The notes beneath the pieces were generated by a model, which saw only the letters and a list, made by a program, of their open reading frames with translations, had not been told where the DNA came from and searched no databases. Positions 19,569 to 45,793 of a stretch of 45,793 bases of DNA are shown here, piece after piece. Numbering within the stretch: the stretch's first letter is position 1; each line of letters starts with the position of its first letter. The position numbers and the translations under genes are program-made. Source of the stretch: an uncultured delta proteobacterium (GTDB taxonomy: Bacteria > Desulfobacterota > Binatia > Bin18); assembly GCA_963733195.1 (NCBI GenBank), contig CAVTCR010000027.1:1-45793 (forward strand), in the 5' to 3' direction.

Positions 19569-19591
19569 ACTTCCTCCTTCCTGTGTCCATG

Positions 19592-21958: not shown

Positions 21959-21961
21959 AGC

Positions 21962-22633
21962 TCACCCCCTCACCTGTTGCGGGTCCTGACCGGAAGCAGT
22001 CAGGACCGCCGCAAAGATGTGCGGATAGGTCCCACAGCGGCAGACGTTGCCGCTCACCGCCGCTTTGATTTCTGGCAGACTCGGCTTGGGGTTGCGATTC
22101 AGTAACGCCCGGCAACTCATTAACATCCCCGGCGTGCAGTAGCCGCACTGGAGCGCGTCATGCGCGATAAATGCTGCTTGTAATGAGTCGAGTTGCTCAT
22201 CGTTTTTTGCCAGCCCCTCGACCGTGCGAATGGCTTTCCCTTGCGCGGTAACGGCGAGAACCATACACGACACAACTGGTTCACCGTCAAGTAACACGGT
22301 ACATCCACCACAGGCGCCACGATCGCAAATCAATTTTGTTCCAGTGAGGTCAAGGTGGTCGCGTAGCGCACTGGCCAGGGTCACGCGCGGCTCCAGGCGA
22401 AGCGTATAGGTACGGTCATTCACCCGCAGCGTCATAGGAACCGGATCAGGACCGACGGCAGACTCAGCAGCGTTTTGCTCCTTGGCAGTGGCGACAGGTA
22501 ACTGGAATCCCACTGCAGCAAGACCTGCTGCGCCTGCACCTGTTCCCTTTAGAAATGAGCGGCGGGAAATGCTGGTCTTTGAGGAAGTGTTCTGTGTGCT
22601 ACTCTCTACGGGAGTGTTTTCCCCTTTGGGCAT
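21962..22633 (-). CDS. Molybdo-hydroxylase 2Fe-2S subunit with a Tat signal (PaoA/YagT-like)
   Basis: ISRRSFLK, TGTKLICDRGACGGCTV, QCGYCTPG, GNVCRCGTY; AAGGAGG RBS. Confidence 0.93.
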   Translation of the reverse strand: MPKGENTPVESSTQNTSSKTSISRRSFLKGTGAGAAGLAAVGFQLPVATAKEQNAAESAVGPDPVPMTLRVNDRTYTLRLEPRVTLASALRDHLDLTGTKLICDRGACGGCTVLLDGEPVVSCMVLAVTAQGKAIRTVEGLAKNDEQLDSLQAAFIAHDALQCGYCTPGMLMSCRALLNRNPKPSLPEIKAAVSGNVCRCGTYPHIFAAVLTASGQDPQQVRG

Positions 22634-23762: not shown

Positions 23763-24638
23763 TTAGATTTTCTGCGCCCGTTCAAGAATCGGGGCGACGC
23801 GATCAATGCAGCCCAGCGCGTTCCCAGTCGCAATCTCCTGGACGAACGGTTGCGAGAAAAACACAATCCGGCTCGCGCCAGCCTCACGAAAGGCTTTCAG
23901 GGTATCCGCGGACAGCGCACCATTTTGCGGATCGACAAAAGCCGTCATCTGGAGAGCATCAGGATTACGTCCAGCCTCTTTGGCCTTCTGCCGGATGATC
24001 TCCACTTTCTTTTTGTAGTCAGCCGGATCGTTGGTCAGCGGACACCAACCGTCATAAGTGCGTGCGACGCGTTCCAAGGCTTTCGGCGTGTGGCCGCCAA
24101 GAAAGATCGGCGGACCAGATTTCTGCACCGGCTTGGGGTCACAATACACGGGCGGGAATTGCACGAGTTCACCCTGATAGCTCGGTTTCGGGTGGGTCCA
24201 GAGGATGCGCATGGCTTCTACCGTTTCTTGCAAGCGTTTCCAGCGGAGACGAAACTTGGTCCCCATTATCTCAGTCTCTTCCTTCACCCAGCCGCCGCCG
24301 ACCCCGAGAATCACCCGACCGCCAGAGTACATATCAAGGGAGGCAATCACCTTCGCCGTCATCAACGTGTCACGTTCCGGGAGCAGGCAAATACCCGTCG
24401 CCAGTTTGAGGCGCTTGGTGGCGGTGGCCGCGACCGTGAGGGCAATAAAGGGATCAGCCCAGCGGTTATAATGTTCCGGGAGTATGTCACCTCCGGGGAG
24501 TTGCCTGTTGAACCCCACGGGAATGACGGGATGTTCGCCAATCCACAACGATTCAAAACCAAGCGCTTCAACACGGTGGGCGATTTCTGCGATGTTCTTC
24601 GTCTCTTGTGTGGCCGGCACGGTAATGCCAATGTTCAT
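23763..24638 (-). CDS. LLM-class, probably F420-dependent oxidoreductase (Rv2161c-like)
   Basis: GFESLWIGEH, DPFIALTVAATAT..LKLATGI, SGGRVILGVGGGW..EE, PKPVQ..GPPIFLGG. Confidence 0.9.
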   Translation of the reverse strand: MNIGITVPATQETKNIAEIAHRVEALGFESLWIGEHPVIPVGFNRQLPGGDILPEHYNRWADPFIALTVAATATKRLKLATGICLLPERDTLMTAKVIASLDMYSGGRVILGVGGGWVKEETEIMGTKFRLRWKRLQETVEAMRILWTHPKPSYQGELVQFPPVYCDPKPVQKSGPPIFLGGHTPKALERVARTYDGWCPLTNDPADYKKKVEIIRQKAKEAGRNPDALQMTAFVDPQNGALSADTLKAFREAGASRIVFFSQPFVQEIATGNALGCIDRVAPILERAQKI

Positions 24639-27820: not shown

Positions 27821-28888
<1,068 letters not shown>

Positions 28889-29299
28889 CTAGTCCACAGA
28901 GGATCCGGCCTGGTATTGTTCGTCGCTGACCTTTTCCATCCACTCGACGCTCTTGCCGTCGAGCTGTTCGACAATGGCGATGTGCGTCATGGCCGTGGTG
29001 GCCGTGGCGCCGTGCCAATGTTTCTCATCAGGCGGGCATCGGACCACGTCTCCCGGCCGAATTTTCACGACCGGGCCTCCCCAGCTCTGTACCAGGCCGC
29101 AGCCAGCCGTCACGATCAGGGTCTGGCCCAGCGGGTGGGTGTGCCATGCGGTCCGCGCGCCGGGCTCGAACGTGACACTGGCGGCGAACATGCGGGCCGG
29201 CGCGGGTGCCTGGTACAGCGGGTCAATGCGTACCGTGCCGGTAAAATACTCGGCCGGTCCTTTGCTGGAGGGCTGTGAGCCATTTCTTTTGATGTCCAT
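28889..29299 (-). CDS. Cupin domain protein (paralog of 26404-26941, no signal peptide)
   Basis: [26 protein letters not shown]; AAGGAGG RBS. Confidence 0.92.
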
Positions 29300-29371
29300 G
29301 TTCTGAATTCCTCCTTTGATAGAATTTTTCTTTGGTCAACCTCTTTCCCAACCGCTCGAACGCGGCAATGT

Positions 29372-29765
29372 TCAACTAACAGATTGTTTCTTCGTGGCAC
29401 GAGTTTGATAGTCGCGGATCGCGCCACAGGGCTCACGATGTGATTGATGATGCTGGCGGCGTAGCGGCGGTATTTGGTGCGGTACACGGCGTCGATCTGG
29501 TCGTTGAGGTCGGGGTCGGCGTCCACGAACGTGACATCTTTGTCGACGCTCACCAGCCTGGATGTGGCCTTCGTGGCGCACCTGCGTGCCACGGAACCAG
29601 GCGGCGGTAGCGCCCGTTGACGGATCGGACGTAGAGGTCATCGCCGTGGCGGACGACCCAAATCATCACCGGGTTGCGCAGCGTGCCGTCGCGTCGGAGT
29701 GACGCGATCTTCAGTTCTTCTGCTGTGCCGATCTTGGTGAGCTCGTCGCTCGTCCACGTTATCAT
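29372..29765 (-). CDS. DUF2255-family protein (frameshifted; 3' end uncertain)
   Basis: WTSDEL..IG.AEEL.IAS.R.DGTLR.PV.IWVVR..DDLYVRS, AWFRG, IDAVYRTKY. Confidence 0.8.
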
Positions 29766-29788
29766 CGGCGCGTCTCCTTTTTCGCCGC

Positions 29789-29863
29789 TCAGCGACCCAG
29801 CAGTTGCATGATGTGTTCGGGGTACCGTTCCCCTTGCACTGTGATCTTTGCGGTGGCTGTCAT
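29789..29863 (-). pseudogene. Orphan AKR C-terminal tail / 24-aa mini-ORF
   Basis: MTATAKITVQGERYPEHIMQLLGR*, homologous to the C-terminus of the AKR ending at 27859. Confidence 0.75.
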
Positions 29864-29865
29864 AA

Positions 29866-30955
<1,090 letters not shown>

Positions 30956-31236
30956 ATTGATGTGGCCCTGAAAGAACGCTGCATGCCACCGCGCGGGTTG
31001 TCGTGTCGCCGCTGACGACATGCCCTGGAAACAGGCTATCTACTACGGGTTCAGCACTCTCACGATATAGTCTGTCCCACGTTGTCGACCGCACGATATA
31101 AGAAGACTCACTTGACACACAGAATAATAATGGAGCTGTCAAAGTGATAGCGTATAAACAGGCCGGAGGGGTCCTTGTTTGGAAGACGCATTCCTTCTGT
31201 TTAACAGACTCTCCCCTTTCTCGCACCAGAACCCTT

Positions 31237-32565
31237 TTATCGTCGTATCGCCGGACTTTCTACTGATAGACCTCTTGCACGCCAGGCCATGTACAACTCA
31301 AGGTTCACATAGTCGTCAGAACCTAGGGCAAAAGGTTCCGCACGGATGGAAGTATTACACCAGGCAAACATCCGGTGAGACGAACCTAGGGTCTGCCACA
31401 GTTGTCGATAGATGGGAAATCCATTGATCTGCCCTTGACTGATGACCTCACCGTGGAGTCGTTGCCCGTTGTGTAGGTCGTGGCAGTGTGCACAGGCGAG
31501 GTTCAGTTGCCCACGCCGCTGCATGTAGAACGTTCGTCCCGCTTGAAAGAATGGGCGGGCCGGGCCGTCAACCTGCACCTCCATCGGCAAACTTCGAGAT
31601 TGAAAACTGATGAACGTCGTGAGCGCTAATAATGACTCAGATTCATAGGCATAGGCTGAGGCTTTCATGTGCTGTTCGCGGCAGCGATTAATTTGCTGTT
31701 CAAGATTGATGAGCTTTTTACTCTGCGAGTCAAAGCGTGGATAACGAGAGCGTACGCCACGCATGCTTTCTGCACCGGCATGGCAACTTGCACAGGCTGT
31801 ATTGGCTGCACCGTCTGTCTTCGCCCACAACTCTCGGCCACGCTCTACCCACAACATACCAGGATTGGCAAACTCGTCGTTCTGAAGCTGTTGGTTTTCT
31901 TGCGACAGATAGGTGTAGCCTGAGCGCCGAGTTTCAACGACGTAGAGGGGTTGCTTTCGTCTGTGAGATCCTGTGTCCGATTGGGCTTCCGCTATCTGCT
32001 GAGCACTCTGCCCTTCTAAGGGTGGAGGTGTGTCTTTGAGTGTAAGTAAATACGCAATGACATCCTCAATTTCTTGCGCTGTAAGTAGTGTTTTGTTGCG
32101 ATACGGTGTAAGGACACGATAGAGCCCGCTGACTTTATAGTATGCCGGCATGACTGATTGTGGATTGATCCGTTGTGCATCAACCAAACGTAATCGTAAC
32201 GCTCCTGCCGAGTAGCGACTTCCTATCCCGTCAAGCGCTGGACCGACAGTTCCATGCATCTGACGGTCTGGGAGCGGTGCGGCGTGGCACACAAGACAGT
32301 CACCTCGCTCACGATCCATGAAGATATGTCTGCCGCGTTCAGCGTCACCAAGAGTGCTCGTGAGTGGCTCGGTAATGGCATCATTCGTGACTTGGTAGCG
32401 AGTTTGAGACTCTTCTACAGCTACCGCCTCGTCTAGGACAGCAATGTTCCATGGAAGTACTAAGATCAATAGATAGTAGATGCTCAGGAAGCACCAGTAG
32501 TGACTTCTTTGCTCTGGTCGGTGTGCGCCACGAGAGAAAATTACCTTAGGAGATCGCACGGTCAT
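31237..32565 (-). CDS. soxXA: Fused SoxX-SoxA triheme c-type cytochrome
   Basis: SoxX part: GDAERG...CLVCH...GTVGPAL...NPQSVMP. SoxA part: RRSGY...NPGMLWV..G..LW...CASCH, EQQINRCR, GQLNLACAHCH, FPIYR..WQ, C..IRAEP, LELY..WR..GL....P..RR. One uninterrupted ORF. Confidence 0.9.
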   Translation of the reverse strand: MTVRSPKVIFSRGAHRPEQRSHYWCFLSIYYLLILVLPWNIAVLDEAVAVEESQTRYQVTNDAITEPLTSTLGDAERGRHIFMDRERGDCLVCHAAPLPDRQMHGTVGPALDGIGSRYSAGALRLRLVDAQRINPQSVMPAYYKVSGLYRVLTPYRNKTLLTAQEIEDVIAYLLTLKDTPPPLEGQSAQQIAEAQSDTGSHRRKQPLYVVETRRSGYTYLSQENQQLQNDEFANPGMLWVERGRELWAKTDGAANTACASCHAGAESMRGVRSRYPRFDSQSKKLINLEQQINRCREQHMKASAYAYESESLLALTTFISFQSRSLPMEVQVDGPARPFFQAGRTFYMQRRGQLNLACAHCHDLHNGQRLHGEVISQGQINGFPIYRQLWQTLGSSHRMFAWCNTSIRAEPFALGSDDYVNLELYMAWRARGLSVESPAIRR

Positions 32566-33830
32566 GTAAAGGCATCTGCAGTGATATTGGCATACCAGGA
32601 ACGTGCATACGCTGCTTCACGGGCCCGAGTTTCGGCTGGGGCGTCTAGCGGACTAACTCCGTCGGTTCCTGGTATCGTCTCGATTACATCGTTGACGGCT
32701 CGATACACGCCCGTAATCGAAATGCCGTAATTTGGTGCGACGAGGCTATAGCACGTATTCATAAGCACAGGAGGTGCCACAGGCTCACTACGTAATAGCG
32801 AGGCGATCGCAGCCGCACATGCTTTCGCCTCAACACTAGCCCCGAAGGCTGACTTGGGTATGGGGTTTGTAATAGCGGCATCACCAATAATGTGAATGTC
32901 GTGATGTACAGTAGACTCAAAGGTACTCGCGCGCACCGGACACCACCCTTTCTTATCGTCAAGATCTACCACCCTTGCTATCAAGGCGGCCCGCTGCGGG
33001 GGAATGATATTTGCCACTGCCGGTTTGTATTCATCAAAGTCCGTCCGTACAATCCCTTCACGTATGTCAACCCGATTCGCCCGGCCTCCTTGCGAACCTG
33101 AGACCCATTCTAAGGTGGTAGGATACAGCTGCTTCCAAGCCGAGACAAAGAGTTCCTTTTTGGTAAACGTATCTTTGGCATCAAGAACCAGCACCTTCGA
33201 GCGGGGCTTATTTTTCTTGAGATAATACGCAATGAGACTAGCGCGTTCATAAGGACCTGGAGGACAACGGTATGGGTTCTCTGGTACGGTAATGACTACG
33301 AGTCCACCATCTGCCATTGTTTCAAGCTGACGGCGTAAGATCTCGGTTTGCGGACCAGCTTCCCACGCATGGGGAAACACAGTACTCGCCGTGGACGTGT
33401 ACCCTTCGATCGCTCCCCACTGAAGTTCAACACCAGGGCTAAGAACGAGGCGATCATAGGTGAGTTTCTTGCCATCACTTAACATGAGTTGATGCTTCAC
33501 TGGGTCAAGATCAGTGGCCGTGGCATATACCACGCGAACCCTGTAGCGCTGCCGAAGGGTATCGTAAGTATGAGTAAGGGAGGCTAATGACTGTTGGCCA
33601 GCCACTACAGCATTACTAAATGGGCACGTGATAAAACTACGTTGTGTCGTCACGAGTGTGATATCAAGTGAGGAATCTGCCCGGCGGAGATATTTCGCGC
33701 AGGTCGCACCACCAAAACCTCCACCAACCACCACTACTCGGCCTTTCGTCTCTGCTCGGCTCAGATCGGGATGAACACCGGCAGCCAGCAATCCACTCGC
33801 AAGGTGAAGAAACGAACGACGCGTCATCAT
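32562..33830 (-). CDS. fccB: Flavocytochrome c sulfide dehydrogenase flavoprotein (FccB/SoxF) with a Tat signal
   Basis: TRRSFL, VVVGGGFGGATCAKY, TCPFSN, PHAW, YRCPPGPYERA, IGDA, PKSA, NTCYSLV. Confidence 0.9.
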   Translation of the reverse strand: MMTRRSFLHLASGLLAAGVHPDLSRAETKGRVVVVGGGFGGATCAKYLRRADSSLDITLVTTQRSFITCPFSNAVVAGQQSLASLTHTYDTLRQRYRVRVVYATATDLDPVKHQLMLSDGKKLTYDRLVLSPGVELQWGAIEGYTSTASTVFPHAWEAGPQTEILRRQLETMADGGLVVITVPENPYRCPPGPYERASLIAYYLKKNKPRSKVLVLDAKDTFTKKELFVSAWKQLYPTTLEWVSGSQGGRANRVDIREGIVRTDFDEYKPAVANIIPPQRAALIARVVDLDDKKGWCPVRASTFESTVHHDIHIIGDAAITNPIPKSAFGASVEAKACAAAIASLLRSEPVAPPVLMNTCYSLVAPNYGISITGVYRAVNDVIETIPGTDGVSPLDAPAETRAREAAYARSWYANITADAFT

Positions 33831-33839
33831 CAGTGAGTC

Positions 33840-34187
33840 CTACGGCCGTTGTCTTTTCGTAAAATATGAAGCTATCGCGTCGATGTCTGCCTCATCTAGA
33901 CCTTGAGTCAAACGATTCATCACCGTTCCTGACCGTTCACCACTACGAAATGAGCGTAGAGAATCACGCAAGGCGTTCGCGGGCATCGTGTTTAATGGCG
34001 GAATTGCGCCCGTACTGTGACCTTCAGGGCCATGGCACGCAGCGCAGGCATTTGCTAAGGCGGTCCCTCGTTGTACGGTCTGATCTGATGCACTGGCGTC
34101 GAACATACTTCCGACAACCGATATTGTCATGCAGAGGAACCACAATAGAGGCAGCTTAACCCAAGTATGAGCCGTTTCGTCATTCAT
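33840..34187 (-). CDS. Monoheme cytochrome c (FccA/c4-like)
   Basis: Signal-like N-terminus, ACAACHGPEG, GTVMNR (Met ligand), IDAIASYF. Confidence 0.88.
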   Translation of the reverse strand: MNDETAHTWVKLPLLWFLCMTISVVGSMFDASASDQTVQRGTALANACAACHGPEGHSTGAIPPLNTMPANALRDSLRSFRSGERSGTVMNRLTQGLDEADIDAIASYFTKRQRP

Positions 34188-34507
34188 GGCAGCACGGTAA
34201 TCGCAATCCGTTCTACCTCACTCTGTCCTGTGTCGTCAGCCCACGAAATTTCTAACTCACCCGACTGTGTCGCTGTGGTAAAAAAAGACAGATACGGGTT
34301 AGCGGAGATACCCGGAAACAGTTCGGCTCGAAAGACCTCAATGCTATTGTAGCGGCAGGTGAGTAGATTAATGGTGTTCTGCGGGATCGCCTTGCCGACT
34401 TCATCATGGCGGAGTCCCGTCTCCATAGGATGGCGAATAAGAAGACGCACTTCAAAGATTTGCCCGTGCTTAATCTCTGTCGGAACCTGAATCCTCGCAT
34501 TTGCCAT
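34184..34507 (-). CDS. soxZ: Sulfur carrier subunit SoxZ
   Basis: VRLLIRHPMETGLR, ISANPYLSF, SGELEISWADD. Confidence 0.92.
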   Translation of the reverse strand: MANARIQVPTEIKHGQIFEVRLLIRHPMETGLRHDEVGKAIPQNTINLLTCRYNSIEVFRAELFPGISANPYLSFFTTATQSGELEISWADDTGQSEVERIAITVLP

Positions 34508-34560
34508 GATTTTTTTTACGAATCACACACGACACATTTCGTATGCGCATTCTGTCATTA

Positions 34561-35040
34561 TTATTCGTCAATACACGCAGCTGTTGTGACCACAACTTCC
34601 GTGGACCCAAGCCATGCAGAATTGTTATTCATCACTGCAAGTGCAACTACGTGTTGAGTCCCAGCAAGACGAATACGGGTGTTGATCTCGGCTTTGCCAG
34701 ACTGAGGTCCGAGGTGAAAACGGGCAATAACTGGTCGCGGATTCCTTTCTGAGAAAACATGAACACTTTTCACGTAATTCTCCGTGGTCATCGGACTCTC
34801 TATCTGTAATTTCAACGGGACCGAGTTACCGCTCTCGGCAAGAGGAGGAAGCGTCAGTTTCACCTTCCCTACTGTCGGGGTGATTCCCCCAGTGACCTCG
34901 TCAATGAGTGGCTGCAAACGTGGCGGAACTTGGGCTGCAACACTTTCGCTCCTTGCTGCTGGGAAGAGAAGCATGGCGGCAAGTGTCCTAAGCACTTGCC
35001 GCCGCGATAGTGCAAATTGTGACATCGATATCTCTCGCAC
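34561..35040 (-). CDS. soxY: SoxY-like sulfur carrier with a Tat signal and a non-canonical C-terminus
   Basis: LSRRQVL, LPPLAESGNSVP, ERNPRP, TRIRLAGTQ.V.A; ends VVVTTAACIDE. Confidence 0.88.
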   Translation of the reverse strand: MREISMSQFALSRRQVLRTLAAMLLFPAARSESVAAQVPPRLQPLIDEVTGGITPTVGKVKLTLPPLAESGNSVPLKLQIESPMTTENYVKSVHVFSERNPRPVIARFHLGPQSGKAEINTRIRLAGTQHVVALAVMNNNSAWLGSTEVVVTTAACIDE

Positions 35041-35046
35041 GGGATG

Positions 35047-37224
35047 CTATGCTTTTCGCAAATCATGATGCTTCAACGGCAATGAACGAATCCGTTTGCC
35101 AGTTGCGGCGTAGATAGCGTTACAAATTGCTGGGGCCAGTGGTGCGAGTGGCGGCTCACCAGCCCCACCCCAGAATCCACCTGTTGGTGCGAGTACCACT
35201 TCGACCTTTGGCATCTCGGCAATGCGCATCATGGGATAATCATGAAAATTGGACTGCTCGACTCTCCCGTCCTTTATTGTGATCTCGCCATACAAAATGG
35301 CTGTCAACCCATAGACGACGCAACCTTCGACTTGAGCACGAACAGAATCAGGATTCACGACATATCCACTATCAAGGCCAATAATCAGGCGATGGATCTT
35401 GAGTTCACCCTTGTCACTCACAGAGACTTCAGCGACCGCTGCGGTGTAACTTCCATAAGCATCTTGGACGGCAATGCCGCGATGCACCCCTGCGGGTAGA
35501 GATTTCTCCCAATTGGCGGCTTTGGCCACGGCATCAAGGATACCCAGATCACGTGTTGCTTTGACAAGGAGTTTGCGGCGGAATTGATACGGATCTTTTC
35601 CTGCAGCGACCGCGAGTTCGTCAATGAAGCACTCACGGAAGAACGGATTATGGGTATGCGCAACCGCTCGCCACGGACCCGGTGGTACGTGAGTGTTGCG
35701 CATCGCATACTCCATGCGAATGTTCGGAAATGCATATGGCGCATCAGAGAACGTTCTCACCCCAATGCTATCAATGCCATTCTTCACCATTTCAGGTCTT
35801 ACACTATTGAAAATCGATTGATCTGCTTGGCGAACATACCACGCTGTTGGTTCATTCGCCGCATCAAGCGCGGCTCGCATCCGTACCAATGCTACAGGTC
35901 GATAGTGTCCGTGCTGAATATCTTCTTCCCGCGACCAGATCAATTTCACAGGCTTTCCTGGAAGCGCCTTAGCGATGGTGACAGCTTGCCGAACATAATC
36001 GAGGACCAGGCCACGCCGGCCAAAGCCACCGCCAATGTGGACCTTATGTACTTCAACATTGCTCAAAGGAATTTCCGTGATCTCAGCAGCCAACGCTGCG
36101 GTTGCTTCGCTATTCTGCGAAGGAGCCCAGACTTCAACACGGCCATCGTGGATATAGGCCGTACAATTCTGCGGCTCCATAGTTGCGTGTTCTAGATATG
36201 GTGCGTAGTACTCAGCCTCGACGACTTTAGCAGCTCCAGCAAAGGCTTTGTCTATGTCCCCTTCTTGGCGTGAGACTGGAGCATCTTTTACTGTGATACC
36301 TTCACGGAGGAACTCCATAATACTAGCGCTGCTGACTTTCGCGTTGTCGCCAAAGTTCCATTCAATTGGCAGTTCTCGCAACGCTTGTTGTGCGTGCCAC
36401 CAACTTCCTTCAGCAACGACGGCAACGGCGCTTTCCATCGGTACCACTTTAACTACACCAGGCTTGCTAGAGATTTTGTCAGCGTCGGCATTTTTGAGGG
36501 TGCCACCAAATACCGGGCATTGCGCGATCGCGGCATAGACCATGCCTGGGAGTTTCGTATCAATGGCAAAAGCCGTCTTGCCCGTGACTTTGTCCGGGAT
36601 GTCAAAGCGTTTGACGGGTTGTCCGATCAGCTTCCACTCCCTAGGATCTCTGAGGACGACATCAGTAGGAATATCGAGCTTGGCGGCATCAGCAGCGACC
36701 GCACCATACTTCACCTGTCGTTTGCTCGATGTGTGGGTAACAACTCCGTGGGCTGCTGTACATTCTGCTGGCAGAACTCCCCACTTGTTGGCAGCTGCAG
36801 TGACCAACATCGTCCGTGCGGCAGCCCCAGCTTGGCGCAGATACTCGTGGCTATCACGGATCGATCTGCTGCCGCCGGTTAACATTTCTTTGAAGACACG
36901 GTTGCGGCGTAAGTGTTCGCTGGTGGAGGCATATTCAGCGCGGACCTGCTTCCAATCACACTCCAACTCTTCGGCAATCAACATCGGGAGGCCAGTAAAA
37001 CTACCCTGCCCCATTTCTGTCCGCGCGACACGAATCAGAATAGTGTCATCTGGATTGACGAGTACCCAGGCTGTGACTTCCGGTCCGACGCTGGACGCAG
37101 CTGCTTTCTGCTGTTTTTTAGCGAGAACCGTTTGGGGGAGGCAGACACCGATCATAAGGCCGCCGCCCACCGTGGCACTCCGCACTAGAAAAGCTCGGCG
37201 TGAAAGATGCTGAGACGCTGGCAT
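35047..37224 (-). CDS. Molybdo-hydroxylase large subunit (isoquinoline 1-oxidoreductase beta/IorB-like) with a Tat signal
   Basis: LSRRAFLV, RTEMGQG...IAEEL, TGGSRS, HATMEPQNC, GGGFGRR, WRAV, VNPD...AQ.EG, QSNFHDY, GGAGEP. Confidence 0.93.
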   Translation of the reverse strand: MPASQHLSRRAFLVRSATVGGGLMIGVCLPQTVLAKKQQKAAASSVGPEVTAWVLVNPDDTILIRVARTEMGQGSFTGLPMLIAEELECDWKQVRAEYASTSEHLRRNRVFKEMLTGGSRSIRDSHEYLRQAGAAARTMLVTAAANKWGVLPAECTAAHGVVTHTSSKRQVKYGAVAADAAKLDIPTDVVLRDPREWKLIGQPVKRFDIPDKVTGKTAFAIDTKLPGMVYAAIAQCPVFGGTLKNADADKISSKPGVVKVVPMESAVAVVAEGSWWHAQQALRELPIEWNFGDNAKVSSASIMEFLREGITVKDAPVSRQEGDIDKAFAGAAKVVEAEYYAPYLEHATMEPQNCTAYIHDGRVEVWAPSQNSEATAALAAEITEIPLSNVEVHKVHIGGGFGRRGLVLDYVRQAVTIAKALPGKPVKLIWSREEDIQHGHYRPVALVRMRAALDAANEPTAWYVRQADQSIFNSVRPEMVKNGIDSIGVRTFSDAPYAFPNIRMEYAMRNTHVPPGPWRAVAHTHNPFFRECFIDELAVAAGKDPYQFRRKLLVKATRDLGILDAVAKAANWEKSLPAGVHRGIAVQDAYGSYTAAVAEVSVSDKGELKIHRLIIGLDSGYVVNPDSVRAQVEGCVVYGLTAILYGEITIKDGRVEQSNFHDYPMMRIAEMPKVEVVLAPTGGFWGGAGEPPLAPLAPAICNAIYAATGKRIRSLPLKHHDLRKA

Positions 37225-37320
37225 AATAGCTCTCCTTAAAAACTCCCCTGTTCACACTACACAAACCGCAGTCCGTAGTGCGTCAGGAATAAACACGTTT
37301 TATGGAATACGCATCACGAT

Positions 37321-37770
37321 TCACGCACTCTTCGCCGCGGCATGGATCGCTTTGCGTATGCGAGCATAGGTTCCACAACGACAGATGTTGGTCACCTCGG
37401 CGTCGATGTCTGCGTCGGTAGGCTGAGGTTTCTTCTTGAGGAGTGCAGCAGCAGCCATAACCATACCTGGCTGACAATAGCCGCATTGCGGAACTTGCTC
37501 AGCAACCCAAGCTTTCTGCACGGGATGATCGCCATTGGGAGAAAGGCCCTCGATGGTGAGGACTTTCTTTCCTACGGCAGCTGATGCTGGCAAGACGCAG
37601 GAGCGTACGGCTTCACCATCCAGATGCACCGTACAGGATCCACACAGCGCCATGCCACATCCATACTTCGCACCGGTGAGACCAATGGCGTCTCGCAAAA
37701 CCCACAGAAGAGGCATCTCTGGGTTGACATCCACAGAGTGTGATTTGCCATTAACCATAAGCTCGATCAT
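37321..37770 (-). CDS. Molybdo-hydroxylase 2Fe-2S subunit (IorA-like)
   Basis: [41 protein letters not shown]. Confidence 0.94.
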
Positions 37771-37900
37771 TGTTCCCCCTTCTTTATTTTCTGTAACGTT
37801 GTTCGTCTTCAGATCTGGGACTCAGCGGATAGTACGGAACTATTCCTGCCTAACCTAGAACAGGCACGCAATCAAGAACGGGACAAGTGCGAGTCTACTC

Positions 37901-38956
37901 TTACAACCCTCGCACCGCGGGCAATACGTCCTGCGCGAAACGACGCATACTACTGAGCACCTCTCTGTGAGGGACGAGGCCGCCAGGATTAAACCAACAG
38001 ATCAATTGATTCATCTCACACAGTCTATGTGCTTCAGTGATCTTGCGGATGCAGGTGTCCGGCGAACCATAGATTCCCATCGTTTGATCGATATCGTCCC
38101 ACGTCACTGTGTCGAATCGCTGTCGCACTTCACGTAAATACGTATAGGAAGCTCCTTGCTCTCGTTGTCCCAGTTTTGCTTGATGGCTGACAGTGCGGAA
38201 GTAGTGCATGGTACTGTCTTCGACTGCATGTCGAGCGTGTTCGCCGCTATCTGTGACAAAGAACTTGAACGCGACGGCCACATCCTCTTGGGCAGTCTGA
38301 TGTCCAGTATTCTTGAAGGCATCGCGATAGATCGCGATATGACGCGGAAGTTCAGGGAATGGATGAATGGTAGCAGCGACAAGAACAGGGTATGCGTGTG
38401 TGCCAGCGAAAGCTGCAGTTTCAGGGCTATTGGCAGCGATACGAAGCGGAGGATGTGGTTTCTGCAGCGGTTTTGGTGCGATTGCGGTTTCTGGTACGTG
38501 AAAGTACTTCCCAGTGAAGTGAAAAGTGTTTTGCGTCCATGCGTTAGTAATGATTGTTAACGCTTCCTCGAACCTCTCACGACTGTCATCTCGCGAGACG
38601 TTAAACCCTTGGAAATGCAGCGCGATAGTTCCGCGACCTATACCGAATTCCAAGCGGCCATTCGTAAGGATGTCGACAGTAGCCGCATCTTCAGCAGCGC
38701 GTAGCGGGTGTTGCAAAGATAATAATGCGACCGCCGTACCAAGACGAATACGCTTTGTGTGTTGAGCAACCGCAGTGGCTACAAGCATGGGGGCAGGCAT
38801 GATCGAGAACGGACGATTAAAGTGCAGTTCCGCCAACCAGGCAACGTCAAATCCGAGTTCGTCAGCATAGACGATCTGCTCGATTGTTTCGTGATAGCGA
38901 GTGACTTCATCTTGTTCAGGTCCGCATGGGAGTTGGTAAAAGAGCCCGAATTTCAT
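37901..38956 (-). CDS. Luciferase-like monooxygenase (LLM) family
   Basis: MKFGLF, LGFDVAWLAELHF, IRLGTAV, AEDAATVDIL..GRLEFGIGRG, PKPLQKPHPP. Confidence 0.92.
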   Translation of the reverse strand: MKFGLFYQLPCGPEQDEVTRYHETIEQIVYADELGFDVAWLAELHFNRPFSIMPAPMLVATAVAQHTKRIRLGTAVALLSLQHPLRAAEDAATVDILTNGRLEFGIGRGTIALHFQGFNVSRDDSRERFEEALTIITNAWTQNTFHFTGKYFHVPETAIAPKPLQKPHPPLRIAANSPETAAFAGTHAYPVLVAATIHPFPELPRHIAIYRDAFKNTGHQTAQEDVAVAFKFFVTDSGEHARHAVEDSTMHYFRTVSHQAKLGQREQGASYTYLREVRQRFDTVTWDDIDQTMGIYGSPDTCIRKITEAHRLCEMNQLICWFNPGGLVPHREVLSSMRRFAQDVLPAVRGL

Positions 38957-39281
38957 CGCCCCTCCTTAGAATAATGACACGCGTTCGACCACGTCGTTGG
39001 CACATTTCGTCCACGCACCACGATGGAATAGTCCTCTACTGACAGCAGGTCGTCAACGAGGGTTGAAAGATAATGGTTTGCGAGGAACAAAACACGAAGG
39101 TTTGGATTGAGTTAGCTGTAAAGATGAGCAAGGGTTCCCGACTTCATCGGTCGGAAATTTTCTCTCGGCCGGCAAATCGCAAAACTAGGAAAGTAAGGTG
39201 AAGTTTTTCGCATTTCTGCTAAAGAGCGAGCGCTCCTGTTCGCTCCTCAGCACTCCATCTCGATTTTCTCTCTGCCTCTTT

Positions 39282-39297
39282 GGGCACGCGTTTTGCT
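39282..39297 (+). promoter_or_regulatory. Sigma-54 (-24/-12) promoter
   Basis: GGGCACGCGTTTTGCT fits GGCACG-N4-TTGCW with exact GG-N10-GC spacing. Confidence 0.7.
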
Positions 39298-39324
39298 TAT
39301 AATCTGCTCTATAAGGAGGTTTCT

Positions 39325-39432
39325 ATGAGATCATGCACTACGCATTCAGACATAATGAGCGGATCCAGAACAAAAGATGCGAGCGGGGTTTCGGCTTCTG
39401 TTGCGACGTATAACTGTTGGCGAAATCTCTGA
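39325..39432 (+). CDS. 35-aa small ORF (or decayed gene start)
   Basis: AAGGAGGT at 39313-39320; MRSCTTHSDIMSGSRTKDASGVSASVATYNCWRNL*. Confidence 0.45.
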   Translation: MRSCTTHSDIMSGSRTKDASGVSASVATYNCWRNL

Positions 39433-39505
39433 CATCAGACAGTTGCTACCGATAGTTCTGTGAAAATTGTGGCCTGAACAATTGTGACGAGAGAAAGAGC
39501 TGACC

Positions 39506-40021
39506 ATGACATCGTACCGATTACTCGAACAACTCCTCAAAATGGAACAGCGCGTTCGTCAGGTCTATGTTGTCTTGAGTCAACATCAACAATTCCCTGC
39601 TGAACTTCGTACCTTGTGGAGCGTGATGGCAGAGGATGAAACGCACCATATTATCGCCTTGGAGCGATCGGCTCATCTGTTGAGTGTTATGGACTTCCCT
39701 CCGTCGATCGTAGAGAACGTGCTCGCCAACGTAGAGACGATAATAACGACCGCCGAAGCCAGCGTTCAACAACCGAGCCTGACCAGCGACGAGGCGTTCC
39801 ATCAAGCATTGCTGATTGAAGGTTCGGAATTGAACCATATCAATGCAGCATGGATGCACGGCTTCCGTTCGACCACGAGATTACTACTGGAGACGTTCGT
39901 GCCCGAAGCACACCAACACGTTCGACGTCTGATCGAAGCAGCGCATCGTTTCAGCACTGACGCAACCGTGCATGCAGAAGCCAATACTCTGTGTTCGCAA
40001 TACGAGAAAGCTCGTGAGTAA
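39506..40021 (+). CDS. Hypothetical ferritin/rubrerythrin-like helical protein
   Basis: LLKMEQRVRQVY...LWSVMAEDETHH...ALLIEGSE...EAHQH: E / ExxH / E / H spacing of four-helix di-metal bundles. Confidence 0.6.
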   Translation: MTSYRLLEQLLKMEQRVRQVYVVLSQHQQFPAELRTLWSVMAEDETHHIIALERSAHLLSVMDFPPSIVENVLANVETIITTAEASVQQPSLTSDEAFHQALLIEGSELNHINAAWMHGFRSTTRLLLETFVPEAHQHVRRLIEAAHRFSTDATVHAEANTLCSQYEKARE

Positions 40022-40161
40022 CGTGCCGGTCGAACGCTGGGCTCTCTCGCTGCTATGGCCCTCAAATTGGGCCAAAGCGCCGAAAGTCCTCGGGTCGAAA
40101 ATCAAGTGGTTAAAGGATCCGACTAGCAAACCATTACGGACGACTCACAGGAGCAAAGCAA

Positions 40162-40750
40162 TTAGTGAAATGGCGTCACCAGCATGGCGGCCACGAAGGG
40201 ATCATCCACACTATTGGGGGTGATGATCTCAAAGAGATCCAGGAAGCCGACCATCTCTAAGACATTGCGAATCTCACGAGGAACGTCGAACAGGCGCAGG
40301 TGACTGTCATGCGCAGCCAGATGCTTTTGCCCGGCCAACAGCGCCGCCAAGCCGGGTGAACTTAAGAACGTGACCTCAGTCATAACAAGATCAACATCAA
40401 CAAAGGCTCGCTGTAGTTCGCGCCGGAGCGCCGGGGCCGTGTTCGTGTCAATCCTGCCCTTCGCAATCAGTGAGGTCCGCTCCCACTCAAGGGTCAAACC
40501 AGAAGGGACGTCAGCCACCGGTCCACTCGGTAATTGCCGGGTTCGTTCCCGTATCTCCGCAACCTGGGGCCCGGGCAGCACGGCCACGATTTTGTTGTCT
40601 GAATTCTCGTGAACCTTCACCTCAATATCCGCAGGAACTTCAATGCCTTCCTCGGCCAATGCTTTTCGGGGGGTCTGCCAAGAGACGTGCACGATAGGCA
40701 GCATCCGTACAGGCCCGTACGATCGCTAGTTTCACTGGGTTCGCTTTCAT
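40162..40750 (-). CDS. NHLP leader-like domain fused to a STAS (anti-sigma antagonist) domain; one frameshift in a G6 run near 40670
   Basis: AAGGAGGAG RBS; MKANPVKLAIVRACTDAAYRARLLAD|PRKALAEEGIEVPADIEVKVHENSDNKIVAVLP, then KGRIDTNTAPALRREL...VTFLSSPGLAALL...IRNVLEMVGFLDLFEII. Confidence 0.82.
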
Positions 40751-40761
40751 TGTGCTCCTCC

Positions 40762-41031
40762 TTACGCTTCACTCGCCTCTACTAGAGGAGGTAGTACAAG
40801 GTGAATGACTTTATCAGTGTTTTCGACAATCTCCACCTCAAGACCCGCAGGCAAAGTGATGCCAGCTTCGGCCAAGACCTGCTTGGGAGCCTGCAAAAGG
40901 CGTTGACGCAGAGCGGGATCCTCTGTTGCTTTTTGCACGAGCTGACCGAAGGAGCCCCGCGTTTCCATGACCAGCAAGTAATCGCGAAAGAATCGGCGTA
41001 CAGAACCAAGAAAGGATGCAGATCCCGCCAT
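40762..41031 (-). CDS. Stand-alone NHLP (nitrile hydratase alpha-like leader) domain protein without a core peptide
   Basis: QLVQKATEDPALRQRLLQAPKQVLAEAGITLPAGLEVEIVENTDKVIHLVLPP, with the stop 7 residues later. Confidence 0.85.
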   Translation of the reverse strand: MAGSASFLGSVRRFFRDYLLVMETRGSFGQLVQKATEDPALRQRLLQAPKQVLAEAGITLPAGLEVEIVENTDKVIHLVLPPLVEASEA

Positions 41032-41278
41032 ATAGATGAAGTCCCCTTTCCAAATCTCTAAGGATAGGCAACATACAGCGCAGCTTCCCCTGAGGTCAAT
41101 GCGTGGGCTCTCCGTCACCACAGAAGATCTCACAGGTAGTTGCACACCACGTCTCTGAAGGAGATTATATGGCATCGTCGCTTTGGGGAGGATCCTCTAG
41201 GCGAGAATTGGAGCCCGTCACCACGAGGATTTGAGAGAGGCGGAACATGCTCTTGCGTGAGGAGAGCGAGGTAACGTT

Positions 41279-43013
41279 ATGCCTGAGACAATGCCAACGA
41301 TTGATATCGAACGTGAGATTCGTAATCTCAATGCGATTTTGGAAGTGTCCAAGGCTATGTCCAGCGAGATCCAACTGGATAATCTGCTGCAAGTCATCGT
41401 GCAGAAAACTGTAGAAATTATGGAGGCAGACCTCGCCAGCCTCTTCTTGTACGATGAAGGGCACAACGAATTGTGGAGTAAGATTGCCCACAAGCTCGGA
41501 CAACTACAGGAAATTCGTTTCTCAGTGGGGGTGGGTATTGCCGGAGATGTGGCCAAGACTCGTCAGGCAGCGAATATTGCCGATGCCTATACTGACCCGA
41601 GATTCAATTCGGACTTCGACAAACAGACAGGGTATCAGACGCGCTCTATTCTTTGTCTGCCCATGATGAGTAGCAAGGGTAAGCTGGTCGGCGTTATCCA
41701 GGTTCTGAACAAGAAAGACAGAGGAGTCTTTGATGAGCGAGACGAGTCGCTTTTGGCGGCGTTGGCTGCTCACGCCGCAGTAGCGCTGGAACGGGCACAG
41801 CTTACCGAAGTCTACGTCGAGAAGCAGCGAATGGACGAGGCACTCAAGTCTCGCACGCGAGATCCAGATGGGTATGTTACCCAAACGATTTCCCCCTTTC
41901 CCGCATCAATCGGAGATCGACCTCTACGCCGCCATCGAACCCGCGCGGGAGGTAGGAGGAGACTTCTACGATTTTATGCTCATTGATGACGACCATCTCG
42001 GTTTCGCCATCGGCGATGTTTCCGGTAAGGGTGTCCCGGCATCGTTGTTTATGTCGGTGACGAAAACTTTGCTCAGGGTCACGGCCGGCAAGCGAGGCCG
42101 TCCTGATGCTGTTCTTGCCGAGCTGAATAATGAACTCTGTCGTGACAACGATACTGGCATGTTTGTCACCATTTTTTACGGAATTCTGCGCCTGCGCACT
42201 GGAGAATTGGAGTACAGTAGCGGCGGTCATAACCTCCCTTATGTCCTCTTTCAAAATGGCGCGGTGGAAGCTCTCGAACAGACGGGGGGAATGGCACTGG
42301 GCGTACTTGAGGGTATTACGTACGGAGCAAAGAAAGTCACATTGCTGCCAAGAGAGGAGCTCTTCCTATACACCGACGGGGTGACAGAGGCGATGGATAG
42401 TGCCGGCAACCTCTTCTCGGACCACCGTTTGCGAGAGTTTTTACAACGAGAACACAAGTTGTCACCGACCGAGCTGATTAAACAGCGTCGTGAGTGAAGT
42501 GAGGCGTTTTTCTTGCGGCGTCGAGCAGAGTGATGATATTACCGCCCTAGCCATACACTACCTGAGCGATGACAATCACGACGAGACCACTATGAGTAAG
42601 CCAATGTCGATTCGCTTCAAGAACAATCTATCGGAGGTTGAGCGATTAGGTCAGGTGGTGGCAGAATTCGCAGAACTATACCATTTGCCTCCAAACCTGG
42701 GCTTCGATATCTATATGGCTCTGGAAGAGAGCCTGACGAACGTGATTTCCTACGGATACGACGATTCGGATGAGCACGAAATTATGATTCGTCTATCCTG
42801 CCAGGGGGAAGAAGTAACAGCAGTGGTTGAGGACGACGGCCGGCCATTTAATCCGTTGGAGGCGGCAGCGCCGGATACGAGCAAACCGCTTGAGGAAAGG
42901 CCAGTGGGAGGTTTGGGGATTCATTTGCTGCGGAAGTTAATGGACGATGTGGAATACAAAAGACAGAGGAGAGAAATCTCCTGGCGATGAAAAAGAGAAT
43001 CTCATTGACCTGA
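41279..43013 (+). CDS. GAF-SpoIIE/PP2C phosphatase-HATPase_c (RsbW-like kinase) fusion; frameshifts near 41848, 42480 and 42965
   Basis: GAF: NIADAYTDPRFN..D..TGYQTRSILC.P...GVIQVLNK. PP2C: EVGGDFYD, IGDVSGKG, LYTDGVTEA, QSDDIT. In the same frame as QSDDIT: EESLTNVISYG, VEDDGRPFNP, GGLGIHL. Confidence 0.85.
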
Positions 43014-43048
43014 AGTCACTTAAGTGAAGAATACATAAGGAATCGACT

Positions 43049-43168
43049 ATAGACATTACAGAAGAAAACGTGGAGAGGTTATGTTTCTCGGGATCAAAAG
43101 GGAGGCTGGACACGAGTACGGCAAGCAGGTTGGAGGAGAACTCCTGGCGTCGATAGATGGAAAGGTAC
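43049..43168 (+). pseudogene. Truncated STAS (RsbV/SpoIIAA-like) remnant
   Basis: TAAGGA RBS, ATA at the expected start, DITEE...KGRLDTSTASRLEE; similarity ends before the phospho-Ser motif. Confidence 0.7.
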
Positions 43169-43487
43169 CCATCGCCACACAATAGAGAGGCTCAGGAAGC
43201 TGAACACCGAGTATAATCTTTACTTACTGAACTACGGAAGCGAAGCGGACCCTCAATCCGTGGTGCCACGAGAGCGCAGGACATTCGGCGGCGCAATAGT
43301 GCGAGACGCGCTCCGGCACCTATAGCGATTTTCATTTGCGCGAGGCCTCTGAGTGAAATCCGCAGTAGATCCTTCTTTCTCAGCTCGATTCCTGCGCCGA
43401 CCCCTAAGATTTACTTCAACGGAGACAGCTAGTATAACCTGGCGGTCGGGTAGTAGGAGGCAATTTCCTAGGGGGATCGAGCCGGTA

Positions 43488-45793
43488 ATGTGGTTCGCCA
43501 TCAAACGCTTATCTTTGGGCATTTTCCTTATCGCATTGACTTCTAGCATACTGCTGGGTTGGGGGATTGGCATCTCGGCGTAAGACCCGATGCTCTCCTT
43601 GGGCCGAATTCCCCAAGCGGCTGTTCTCATCTATTCGTCTCAGCAAGTATTTATTGGATGGCGCCCAGGGCATGGTAGAAGGGCTCGCGGCAAGTGGGTT
43701 CATCGACGGGCAATCAATCGTCTTGAAACAATACAACGCCAAGGGGGACCTGGCGACGGTCAACACGATCGCCAGGCAGGTCACCAACGGGCAATTTGAC
43801 CTGGTACTGACGATGAGCACCCCGGCCACGCAGGCCGTAGCCAATGCGAACAAGGCCGGCAAAGTCACACACGTCTTTGGCGTCGTCGCCGACCCGTTTA
43901 GCGCAGGGGTTGGTATTAACCGTGAGGACCCACTGGATCACCCGAAACACCTGGTAGGGATCGGTACGCTGCTGCCTGTAGCGAACTCTTTCCAACTCGC
44001 GAGAGAATTCTTTCCCGGCCTCAAATCGGTTGGTGTGGTGTGGAATCGGGGAATCCAATTCGCGGGTCTTCACGGAACAGGCGCGCGAGGCGGCCAAAAA
44101 GCTAGGCATTGACTTGTTAGAGGCGACCGCCGACAACTCGTCGGCGGTGGTCGAAGTGGCCAGTTCCGTAATCTCACGTGCGGGCCCAAGCCTTGTGGGT
44201 CGGGGGTGATAACACTGTCCTGCTGGCGCTCCACTCGGTCATCGCGACGGCGAAAAAGGCGCGCATCCCGGTTTTTACTATCACTCCGGGCGACTCCGGC
44301 AACGCGGCACGCTTTTCGATCAGGGGGCCAATTTCATGAAATAGGGAGGCAGACGGGGGAGTTGGCGGCGCAGATCTTGCGCGGCACCGACCCCCGACCG
44401 TCCCGGTCAGGAACGTCGTGCCGGAGAAGTTGGTGATCAAGAAGCCGGCGCTCAGCGGGTTGGCAGACCCTTGGCGTCTGCCCGAGGAGGTCTCCGCGCG
44501 CGCGGATATATTCGTTGACGAAGCGGGAGTTCATGAAAAGGCAGTCGCAGCGACACAGCAACCGTCGGCCGGACGTGTGTTCAAAGTTGGTGTAGTCTAT
44601 TTCGCACCCGAGCCCGGGGCGGAATCCTGCATGCAAGGGTTGTCCGACGGGTTACGGGATCTGGGGTTCGTGGAAGGTAAGAACCTCGAGGTCCGCAAAG
44701 CGCACGCCCAGGGAGAGATTGTCAAGATTTCCCGCCTGCGCCCTGCAGAGCTACGACAACCAGGACCTGGACGGTGACTTCGCGGCTCAATGACGACGCC
44801 ATGCTGACGGCGGCTTGCAGTACAGTGAAGAAAACGCCGGTGGTGTTCACCTACGTGTACGACCCGGTCGCCGCCGGGGCGGGCACGGTTCTTCCACGGA
44901 TCACCTCCCGAACGTCACGGGCGTCGGCTCGTTTCCTCCGGTCGGTGAGACGATTGACGTGATTCAGCGGCTCATCCCCGGCGTACGGTCGGTGGGAACC
45001 CTGTACAACAACGCGGAAGCGAACTCGCGAAAAGTGGTGAGCGTGGCCCGTGGGTTGTTCCGCCAGCGCAACATCACGCTCGAAGAAGTGGCGGTCACCA
45101 ATACGAGCGAAGTCTTCCAGGCGGCGCAGGCGCTCACACAAAAAAACATCCAGGCAGTGTGGATCTCGGGAGACAACACCGCCCTCCAGGCGTTTCCGGG
45201 TATTGTCAAGGCGGCCACCGACGCCCGCTTGCCCTTAATCAACAACGATCCCAAGTTCGTCGAGCAAGGGGCGCTGGTCAGCGTCGGCATCGGCTGGTAC
45301 CAGACTGGCTACGCCGCCGCCAAGGTGGTGGCACGAGTGTTACGCGGGGAAAGTCCGCAGGCCATACCTTTTGAGAATGTCGCCGTCCGGGATACGGAGT
45401 TGAATCAAAGAGATGGCCGGAAAACTCGGCGTCACATTCCCACCGGAACTGGTTAAGGAAGCAGAAGCGACCGCTAAGCCGCAGGCAAGATGCGGCAGGC
45501 CACGACCCCGCTCGCCAAGAAACGGAACGTGAACCTCGTCGAGTTTAACAATGTGTTAGATGTGGAAGAGGCGGAACACGGCGTACTGACAGGGCTCCGT
45601 GAGTCCGGCCTCGTCGAGGGCCGCTACTACGAGGTCAAGATCCGTAACGCCCAGGGCGACATGGGAACGGTGAACAGCCTGATCGACGCCGCGGTCGGAG
45701 GGCGGGGCTGACCTTTTGATTACCTTGTCTACCCCTACCCTGCAGGCAGCGCTGCAATACAGCGGGCACCAACCCTACCCATCGTCTTCACCT
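43488..45793 (+). CDS. Membrane-anchored protein with tandem ABC_sub_bind-type substrate-binding domains (frameshifted; runs off the window)
   Basis: MWFAIKRLSLGIFLIALTSSILL, then three repeats of G...GL...G...G.......NA.GD/HAQGE...STP (near 43670, 44630 and 45580). Confidence 0.8.

Follow-up and report, generated by a model that had tools for sequence, protein, structure and literature searches.

The locus described here lies on a 45,793-nt stretch of DNA (the whole of which is called the window below), contig CAVTCR010000027.1 of assembly GCA_963733195.1, from an uncultured delta proteobacterium of the Binatia. The source genome comprises 6.95 Mb in 87 contigs, with a completeness of 93.2% and a contamination of 4.5%. 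Listing and translation of the open reading frames (ORFs) revealed seven genes of one orientation on the minus strand between positions 31237 and 37770, which encode, in this order, the small and the large subunit of a molybdenum (Mo) enzyme (IorA and IorB), a SoxY paralog (SoxY*) and its partner SoxZ, a c-type cytochrome, an FccB-like flavoprotein and a fused SoxX-SoxA. The intergenic gaps calculated from the coordinates are, from IorA to SoxXA, 96, 6, 53, -4, 9 and -4 nt. This layout, gaps included, had been described in a first-pass annotation of the same DNA, and the coordinates match that description exactly.

The assignment of each of the seven genes was confirmed with Pfam and NCBIfam. 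IorA (37321..37770) carries two [2Fe-2S] domains (Fer2_2, 1.4e-29; Fer2, 4.5e-09) and no signal peptide; it is presumably exported together with IorB, and in the related loci introduced below its gene is directly upstream of that of IorB. The molybdopterin-binding large subunit IorB (35047..37224; MoCoBD_1, 9e-40; MoCoBD_2, 9.8e-31) is a protein of the xanthine-oxidase family, of the IorB / membrane-bound aldehyde dehydrogenase (membrane-ALDH) type, exported through the twin-arginine translocation (Tat) pathway. A large subunit binding the molybdenum cofactor, a small subunit with two [2Fe-2S] clusters and the lack of a FAD_binding_5 domain in all seven genes are together the make-up of an IorAB-type enzyme of this family. 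SoxY* (34561..35040; SoxY, 1.8e-31), likewise Tat-exported, ends in the C-terminal arm ...VVVTTAACIDE and is followed by SoxZ (34184..34507; SoxZ, 4e-28; TIGR04490, 90.6 bits with a cut-off of 76). The next gene (33840..34187; Cytochrom_C, 3.6e-08) encodes a monoheme c-type cytochrome with a leader and one CAACH motif. It occupies an FccA/SoxE-like position, 9 nt upstream of the gene for the FccB/SoxF-like flavoprotein of the flavocytochrome c sulfide dehydrogenase family (32562..33830; FCSD_central, 2.2e-45; FCSD-flav_bind, 6.3e-26); FCSD flavoprotein domains with an adjoining c-type cytochrome gene are the combination that characterizes flavocytochrome c sulfide dehydrogenase and SoxEF. The last product (31237..32565; SoxA-TsdA_cyt-c, 3.1e-36) has three CxxCH motifs and consists of a SoxX part at residues ~75-177 (TIGR04485, 79.7 bits, cut-off 61) and a SoxA part at residues ~235-442 (TIGR04484, 216.2 bits, cut-off 110). 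As had been claimed, twin-arginine leaders can be read in the translations of IorB (SRRAFL), SoxY (SRRQVL) and FccB (TRRSFL), and hydrophobic leaders on both cytochromes. The seven genes are best explained as one periplasmic module built around the dedicated pair of IorAB and SoxY*Z*. The gene set must be more than a chance neighbourhood, because the same set recurs in dozens of genomes from several phyla.

The C-terminus of the carrier is TTAACIDE and not GGCGG. The best NCBIfam match of SoxY* was TIGR04487, the "SoxY-related AACIE arm protein", with which it shares the arm type (AAC-I-E with the conserved Cys, here AACIDE) but whose cut-off of 172 it does not reach (152.2 bits); with the true-SoxY model TIGR04488 it scored 103.5 bits, below the cut-off of 125. 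No other SoxY was found in the source genome. A large protein database contained 1645 relatives of SoxY*, and among the best 120 of these nearly all end in arms of the type A-[A/G]-A-C-[I/V/T/L]-[D/E] or in the variant CG[V/L]ESK, other ends being present in 2. Residues A155 and C156 are invariant in two alignments (A1 and A3), and across the module the arm is AAC-[I/V/L]-[D/E] in place of GGCGG. The TIGR04487 cut-off is passed by the module homologs of Bradyrhizobium (L059, 229.3 bits) and of a Hyphomonadaceae metagenome-assembled genome (MAG; L073, 175.4 bits), and the Binatia-type and beta-type members stay below it. Judged from its sequence, SoxY* belongs to a curated yet uncharacterised family. 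A literature search with AACIE, 'SoxY-related' and TIGR04487 found no paper.

The conservation of the linkage between IorAB and SoxYZ had been named in the first-pass annotation as the key test. A collection of 185,579 genomes, one for each species, was searched with a profile built from 24 AAC-arm SoxYs. Matches were obtained in 319 stretches, 281 of them with a gene for a relative; the 80 best loci were analyzed by tblastn with eight window proteins and by a positional tally. Counting was confined to those 70 of the 80 loci in which the sequence extends 3 kb or more beyond SoxY* on the upstream side. IorB is encoded on the same strand, at most 1.6 kb upstream of SoxY*, in 53 of them, and five more have it further upstream, either with FccB, with or without SoxX, between the two genes (L061, L073, L079 and L080) or behind a 2-kb gap (L060). 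IorAB is convergent and just downstream in L057. In L041 the gene for IorA comes after that for SoxA where the contig ends, and a further contig of this genome starts inside IorA-IorB. Two loci (L074 and L081) have a canonical GGCGG SoxY, and their genomes contain no close IorB. The remaining loci without an adjoining IorB are a beta subgroup with the arm VTETACLDAT, together with L046, L051 and L075; most of these genomes encode an IorB of the linked type (48-52% identity) elsewhere.

The linkage is thus conserved across phyla despite a rearranged gene order. The order is IorA-IorB-SoxY-SoxZ-cytc-FccB-SoxXA, with the fused SoxXA, in the Binatia-type loci, IorA-IorB-SoxX-SoxY-SoxZ-SoxA in betaproteobacteria, where FccB is missing from the module, and IorA-IorB-(cytc)-FccB-SoxX-SoxY-SoxZ-SoxA in alphaproteobacteria; the extra cytochrome of the beta and alpha loci is SoxX according to NCBIfam. 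The monoheme cytochrome c is encoded in 41 of 81 loci (the 80 and the window), 39 of which are Binatia-type. Two genomes possess, besides a SoxX-SoxY*Z*-SoxA locus, a separate IorA-IorB-SoxY*-SoxZ* locus (L105 and L107), and in a Burkholderiales MAG (L053:3167-11685) IorA-IorB-SoxY-SoxZ is directly followed by IorA-IorB-SoxX-SoxY-SoxZ-SoxA, both SoxYs having ACL[D/E] arms. Since the linkage survives rearrangement and recurs as a bare IorAB-SoxY*Z* unit, IorAB and SoxY*Z* are probably a functional pair. When the ORFs of the 80 loci and the window were clustered all against all, no further gene common across lineages was found.

The closest solved chain to IorB is 8gy3_C, the large subunit of an aldehyde dehydrogenase (E 7.6e-75, full length), followed by PaoC and others. 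Gln370 and the glutamate of the GEPP motif, E690, are invariant in 35/35 linked IorBs, and they align with a Gln and the GE motif of PaoC and 8gy3_C. The Gln of PaoC is probably the active-site Gln211, and the presumed catalytic roles of Q370 and E690 are those described for their equivalents in the literature on xanthine oxidase and PaoABC. The other xanthine-oxidase-family genes of the source genome are at most 30% identical to IorB, which has no close paralog there. Among 200 further genomes sampled from the same phylum, the identity of IorBs to it did not exceed 46%. Around the 18 best of these unlinked IorBs no SoxY, SoxZ, SoxA or FccB was detected within ~6 kb or to the contig end. In 17/18 of these loci there was no downstream cytochrome c gene within 3 kb either, and the remaining one (L096) has one 80-aa ORF with a single CxxCH, a comparison that is uninformative. 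A maximum likelihood tree (LG+G4, quick search) was calculated from 35 SoxYZ-linked and 18 unlinked IorBs. All 35 linked proteins lie on one side of a branch that separates them from the unlinked ones, with a Shimodaira-Hasegawa-like approximate likelihood ratio test (SH-aLRT) support of 100 and a stem length of 0.49. In this tree the SoxYZ-linked IorBs form one separate clade.

The first-pass annotation had proposed complex modelling of SoxYZ with IorAB, FccB and SoxXA; the combination of SoxY*Z* with IorB was run, and its outcome was positive. A model was built from mature SoxY* (residues 37-159), SoxZ and mature IorB (residues 36-725), with an alignment for each chain; IorB was the partner scored. 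The interface score ipSAE was 0.62 (0.62, 0.56 and 0.73 in three runs), while the best of three controls reached 0.15. In the calibration of the modelling tool the same mark is reached by 58/80 solved complexes and by 2/110 mismatched pairs, although, to the disadvantage of our interpretation, these counts apply only roughly here because the modelling used alignments of our own and three chains. The runs have at least 81% of contacts in common, and the predicted local distance difference test (pLDDT) value of the partner is at least 86. The confident contacts involve residues 65-69, 101, 126, and 150, 152-154 and 157 of the arm on the SoxY side, the conserved loop 30-40 of SoxZ, and residues 105, 109, 115, 305-316, 371-381, 387, 406, 408, 470-483 and 507-511 of IorB. 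The stretch 371-381 comes directly after Gln370, and the equivalent stretch of bovine xanthine oxidase presumably lines the mouth of the substrate funnel; SoxY*Z* would then dock at the mouth of the IorB funnel. No solved structure of SoxYZ bound to a member of the xanthine oxidase family is known to us, so it is unlikely that the model merely reproduces a memorized complex.

The predicted interface was compared with the conservation of IorB. A position was counted as clade-specific when 90% or more of the 35 linked IorBs conserve it and 20% or less of 16 unlinked ones share it. Such positions make up 9/31 of the interface and 22/659 of the rest (odds ratio 11.8; one-sided Fisher p 2.3e-06, a value that overstates the case because related sequences were counted as independent, which also has to be set against our interpretation). 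The clade-specific set includes R107, R109, G309, E373, A374, A377, Y506-A507-M508-R509-N510, H512 and F684/W685, the last two just before the catalytic Glu. The complex model supports the binding of SoxY*Z* to IorB but does not show it.

The SoxX and SoxA cytochromes of a canonical Sox system are present, both in one fused protein, whereas a GGCGG-arm SoxY, SoxB and SoxC were not found. In the source genome SoxB (TIGR04486) had no match at E <= 0.001, and the best match to the SoxC model TIGR04555 was 35.8 bits with a cut-off of 420, SoxD not being included in the search. The search for SoxB was extended to the genomes behind 50 of the 80 loci. SoxB was over the cut-off in 0/22 module genomes of the Binatia/Methylomirabilota type, two of which gave weak matches (E ~1e-7) typical of related phosphoesterases, and in 21/28 proteobacterial hosts, so a full Sox system coexists there; two more hold split matches. 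Proteobacteria carry the module as a second locus in addition to a full Sox system; in Binatia-type hosts, the present one included, it stands alone. The earlier statement that the locus is not lithotrophic Sox is supported by a 93% complete genome in which neither SoxB nor SoxC and only one SoxY were found, and the absence of SoxB that came with it holds for Binatia-type hosts but not for the proteobacteria. Secondary sox loci in some Rhizobiales, mentioned in the first-pass annotation, do exist, the Bradyrhizobium locus L059 being an example; the gene content of this Bradyrhizobium locus II was taken from L059 and L110. In B. diazoefficiens, according to PMC5748708, only soxY1 of the two genes soxY1 and soxY2 is essential for thiosulfate oxidation.

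We propose that IorAB works on a group tethered to the cysteine of SoxY*, and give this about an even chance of being right. In the envisaged mechanism Cys156 of SoxY* would be loaded oxidatively by SoxXA with a sulfur anion, which could be thiosulfate, sulfide or another thiolate. FccB and the cytochrome, where present, would provide sulfide-derived sulfane sulfur or maintain the carrier in a working state. SoxY*Z* would then dock at the mouth of the substrate funnel of IorB with the cysteine arm inserted and reaching the Mo centre, which would oxidize the tethered group, IorAB taking the place of SoxCD, and possibly of SoxB too, in the canonical pathway. The electrons would pass via the two [2Fe-2S] clusters of IorA to c-type cytochromes. 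The group that would be carried, the reaction and its product are suggested by this scheme only in outline. Of the three options of the first-pass annotation, the one in which a SoxY-tethered substrate is offered to the Mo enzyme agrees best with the docking model and the clade-specific interface. A more specific form, in which a xanthine-oxidase-family Mo enzyme acts on a carrier-tethered sulfur group, replaces the unrelated SoxCD and renders SoxB unnecessary, is put forward tentatively, as a possibility that we regard as rather doubtful.

Several observations weigh against the proposal. As far as is known, the substrates of xanthine-oxidase-family enzymes are free small molecules, which are hydroxylated at sp2 C-H centres; a member of this family that oxidizes sulfur, or a group bound to a protein, is not known to us. 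No route is evident by which an oxidized sulfur group could be released from the carrier if SoxB is missing, and the full Sox system of most proteobacterial hosts (see above) also counts on this side. Some SoxX-SoxY*Z*-SoxA loci, those of the VTETACLDAT subgroup, lack an adjacent IorAB, and for two of these genomes (G252 and G254) a search found no close IorB at E <= 1e-100. The linked IorBs of the tree were picked through SoxY, and the unlinked ones came from a single phylum. The complex model contained neither the Mo cofactor nor IorA, Cys156 is outside the confident contacts, and the modeller may favour conserved patches.

The docking would be explained equally well if SoxY* delivered sulfur to the enzyme itself. 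In that case a SoxY* persulfide, formed from sulfide via FccB/SoxXA, would sulfurate or repair the Mo=S ligand of IorAB in the periplasm, and IorAB would oxidize an ordinary free aldehyde or heterocycle, as its closest solved relative, an aldehyde dehydrogenase, would suggest. In this scheme, too, the SoxY* arm must enter the funnel of IorB, so that the docking model, the interface of clade-specific residues and the pairing of one IorAB with one SoxY*Z* in L053, L105 and L107 are as compatible with it as with a tethered substrate. The module itself contains no XdhC/PaoD-type maturation gene. On the other hand, a haem enzyme, a carrier pair and a flavoprotein represent a heavy outlay for the repair of a cofactor, the enzyme would rely on external reduced sulfur, and the cofactors of the xanthine oxidase family are normally sulfurated in the cytoplasm before Tat export. 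Re-sulfuration of the Mo centre, another option of the first-pass annotation, is judged unlikely.

The usual carbon-hydroxylating chemistry of the family would be retained if IorAB hydroxylated a free organosulfur compound or thio-heterocycle and the sulfide or thiol released were trapped by FccB/SoxXA on SoxY*, the docking then being a hand-off. FccB-type enzymes act on sulfide, and the conserved linkage is compatible with such a sulfur capture. However, the genes flanking the module vary from lineage to lineage, and none for a transporter, a hydrolase or another organosulfur function accompanies it throughout; the beta-type modules manage without FccB, and the fate of the SoxY*-bound sulfur in the absence of SoxB is left unaccounted for. 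We regard this explanation as quite unlikely.

It could also be argued that an ordinary periplasmic IorAB and a truncated Sox/Fcc module are merely encoded side by side and have common cytochromes or regulation, with no direct contact between them. IorAB-type enzymes need a cytochrome c acceptor, and the module supplies cytochromes. Such a co-location is difficult to reconcile with a linkage that survives rearrangement across phyla, with IorAB-SoxY*Z* units without SoxXA, with the one separate clade of linked IorBs and with a docking model that passes its controls and lands on clade-specific residues; we consider it improbable. Ordinary thiosulfate oxidation with SoxB (and SoxCD) encoded elsewhere, for which the scores of SoxA, SoxX and SoxZ above the NCBIfam 'true' cut-offs and the SoxB of most proteobacterial hosts might speak, is largely refuted for the source genome by the searches for SoxB and SoxC, by the 22 Binatia-type module genomes with no SoxB over the cut-off, by the carrier arm and by the dispensability of soxY2 in B. 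diazoefficiens as stated in PMC5748708, and has a very small probability.

Compared with the canonical Sox system (SoxXA, SoxYZ, SoxB and SoxCD, with SoxEF in Paracoccus), the module has the SoxX/SoxA haem pair, the SoxY/SoxZ carrier with a C-terminal cysteine arm, an FccB/SoxF-like flavoprotein with a small cytochrome, the periplasmic location and one molybdenum enzyme in the set. It differs in the arm, in having no SoxB hydrolase, in its Mo enzyme, which is of the xanthine oxidase family (IorAB, two [2Fe-2S]) and not of the sulfite oxidase family as SoxCD is, and in being, in proteobacteria, a second locus beside the canonical one. With the isoquinoline 1-oxidoreductase IorAB and the membrane-bound aldehyde dehydrogenase (PDB 8gy3, from a three-subunit enzyme) the module enzyme shares a two-subunit core, the absence of a flavin adenine dinucleotide (FAD) subunit and a likely cytochrome c acceptor. 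Unlike these, it belongs to a separate clade with its own conserved surface patch and is encoded with SoxY*Z* instead of a multihaem cytochrome subunit. A SoxYZ-like carrier tied to a periplasmic dehydrogenase outside the Sox pathway is also known from TIGR04557, the 'quinoprotein dehydrogenase-associated SoxYZ-like carrier', but there SoxYZ is fused and the enzymes depend on pyrroloquinoline quinone (PQQ), not on molybdenum; SoxY* and SoxZ matched this model weakly (61 and 55.8 bits with a cut-off of 140). In SAR324 a flavocytochrome c gene is flanked by soxY/soxZ in an otherwise incomplete Sox set, and isoquinoline 1-oxidoreductase is noted separately, with no connection made between the two (PMC4782131). 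The pairing of IorAB with SoxY*Z* was not found in print, in a search that left supplements and most subscription journals outside.

A hitherto undescribed kind of sulfur pathway is suggested by the module. In genome surveys the presence of Sox genes is often taken as "thiosulfate oxidation", an assignment that is probably wrong for hundreds of genomes from soil, freshwater and sponge-associated bacteria, because SoxA, SoxX and SoxZ pass their cut-offs though the arm differs and the Binatia-type hosts have no SoxB. If a Mo hydroxylase does act on a carrier-bound group, the chemistry of the xanthine oxidase family would be wider than known, and this would be its first protein-tethered substrate and a third, non-homologous way to run a Sox-type pathway. 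The second sox locus of Bradyrhizobium (soxY2), long unexplained and reportedly first worked on by Masuda et al. 2010, would gain a function. As the module occurs in isolates (Bradyrhizobium, Limnohabitans sp. 15K and the betaproteobacterium GR16-43), the idea is directly testable.

The IorB of the window has its place in the linked clade among those of MAGs that bear the labels Deltaproteobacteria, Binatia and Methylomirabilota. The record titles of L003, L004, L008, L018, L049 and L070 ('uncultured Enterobacteriaceae', 'Klebsiella pneumoniae', 'Streptomycetaceae') are at odds with the gene content; these labels look unreliable because the IorBs of L004 and L008, which were placed in the tree, group with the Binatia-type clade. 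The G+C content is 0.50-0.56 at window positions 31000-45793 and 6000-12000, compared with 0.59-0.62 at 2-6, 16-18, 20-22 and 28-30 kb. This lower G+C content, 0.51-0.56 in the region of the module, and the absence of close IorB relatives from the 200 genomes of the same phylum, while the protein groups with those of other MAGs, suggest that the host acquired the module horizontally. It appears that the module spread by horizontal transfer among Binatia-type bacteria, Methylomirabilota, Alpha- and Betaproteobacteria.

A gene for a luciferase-like monooxygenase (LLM) without a leader (37901..38956, minus strand; Bac_luciferase, 2.2e-66) is situated 130 nt upstream of IorA on the same strand, as had been noted before. 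Its membership in the system is not supported, since it is adjacent to the module in a single one of the 80 related loci (L002); it is probably a mere neighbour and was rejected as a part of the module. A second luciferase-like monooxygenase gene is at 23763-24638 (-). In a Binatia subgroup (L009:562-7308 and 20 other loci; 21-24 loci in all) hydantoinase B, hydantoinase A, a short-chain dehydrogenase/reductase (SDR) and a copper amine oxidase are encoded directly upstream of IorA. Amine oxidases make aldehydes, a possible hint to a free substrate of IorAB in this lineage-restricted synteny. RNB and TonB genes flank the module only in some betaproteobacteria.

A scan for promoters and terminators between 30800 and 39300 gave counts at the level of shuffled sequence (5 found with 6.6 expected, and 10 with 7.0, respectively) and is silent on co-transcription. 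Three RNA-library runs from soil or metagenomes, each of a different study, contained no more than 5-7% of the words sampled. Short contigs from these libraries, 90-99% identical, cover parts of IorA, IorB, FccB, SoxXA and LLM, and one of them (X2 record 11, 34908-35152) bridges the IorB/SoxY junction. These contigs may derive from DNA or from relatives; they are evidence neither that the present copy is transcribed nor that its genes have one common transcript.

Further genes were noted elsewhere in the window. A second Tat-exported enzyme of the xanthine oxidase family, PaoABC-like and at most 30% identical to IorB, is encoded by three genes at 18705-22633 on the minus strand: a small subunit (21962-22633; TAT_signal, Fer2_2), a large subunit (20030-21958; Ald_Xan_dh_C, MoCoBD_1/2) and an FAD subunit (18705-19568; FAD_binding_5/CO_deh_flav_C). 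Upstream of the module there are genes with a STAS (40162-40704) and a GAF (41279-41986) domain. Three aldo/keto reductase ORFs are present, at 28112-30884 (-) and 8718-9671 (+). One of those on the minus strand (29871-30884) is 352 nt downstream of SoxXA, and the other (28112-28858) covers profile positions 7-212 of 291 only and may be truncated or frameshifted.

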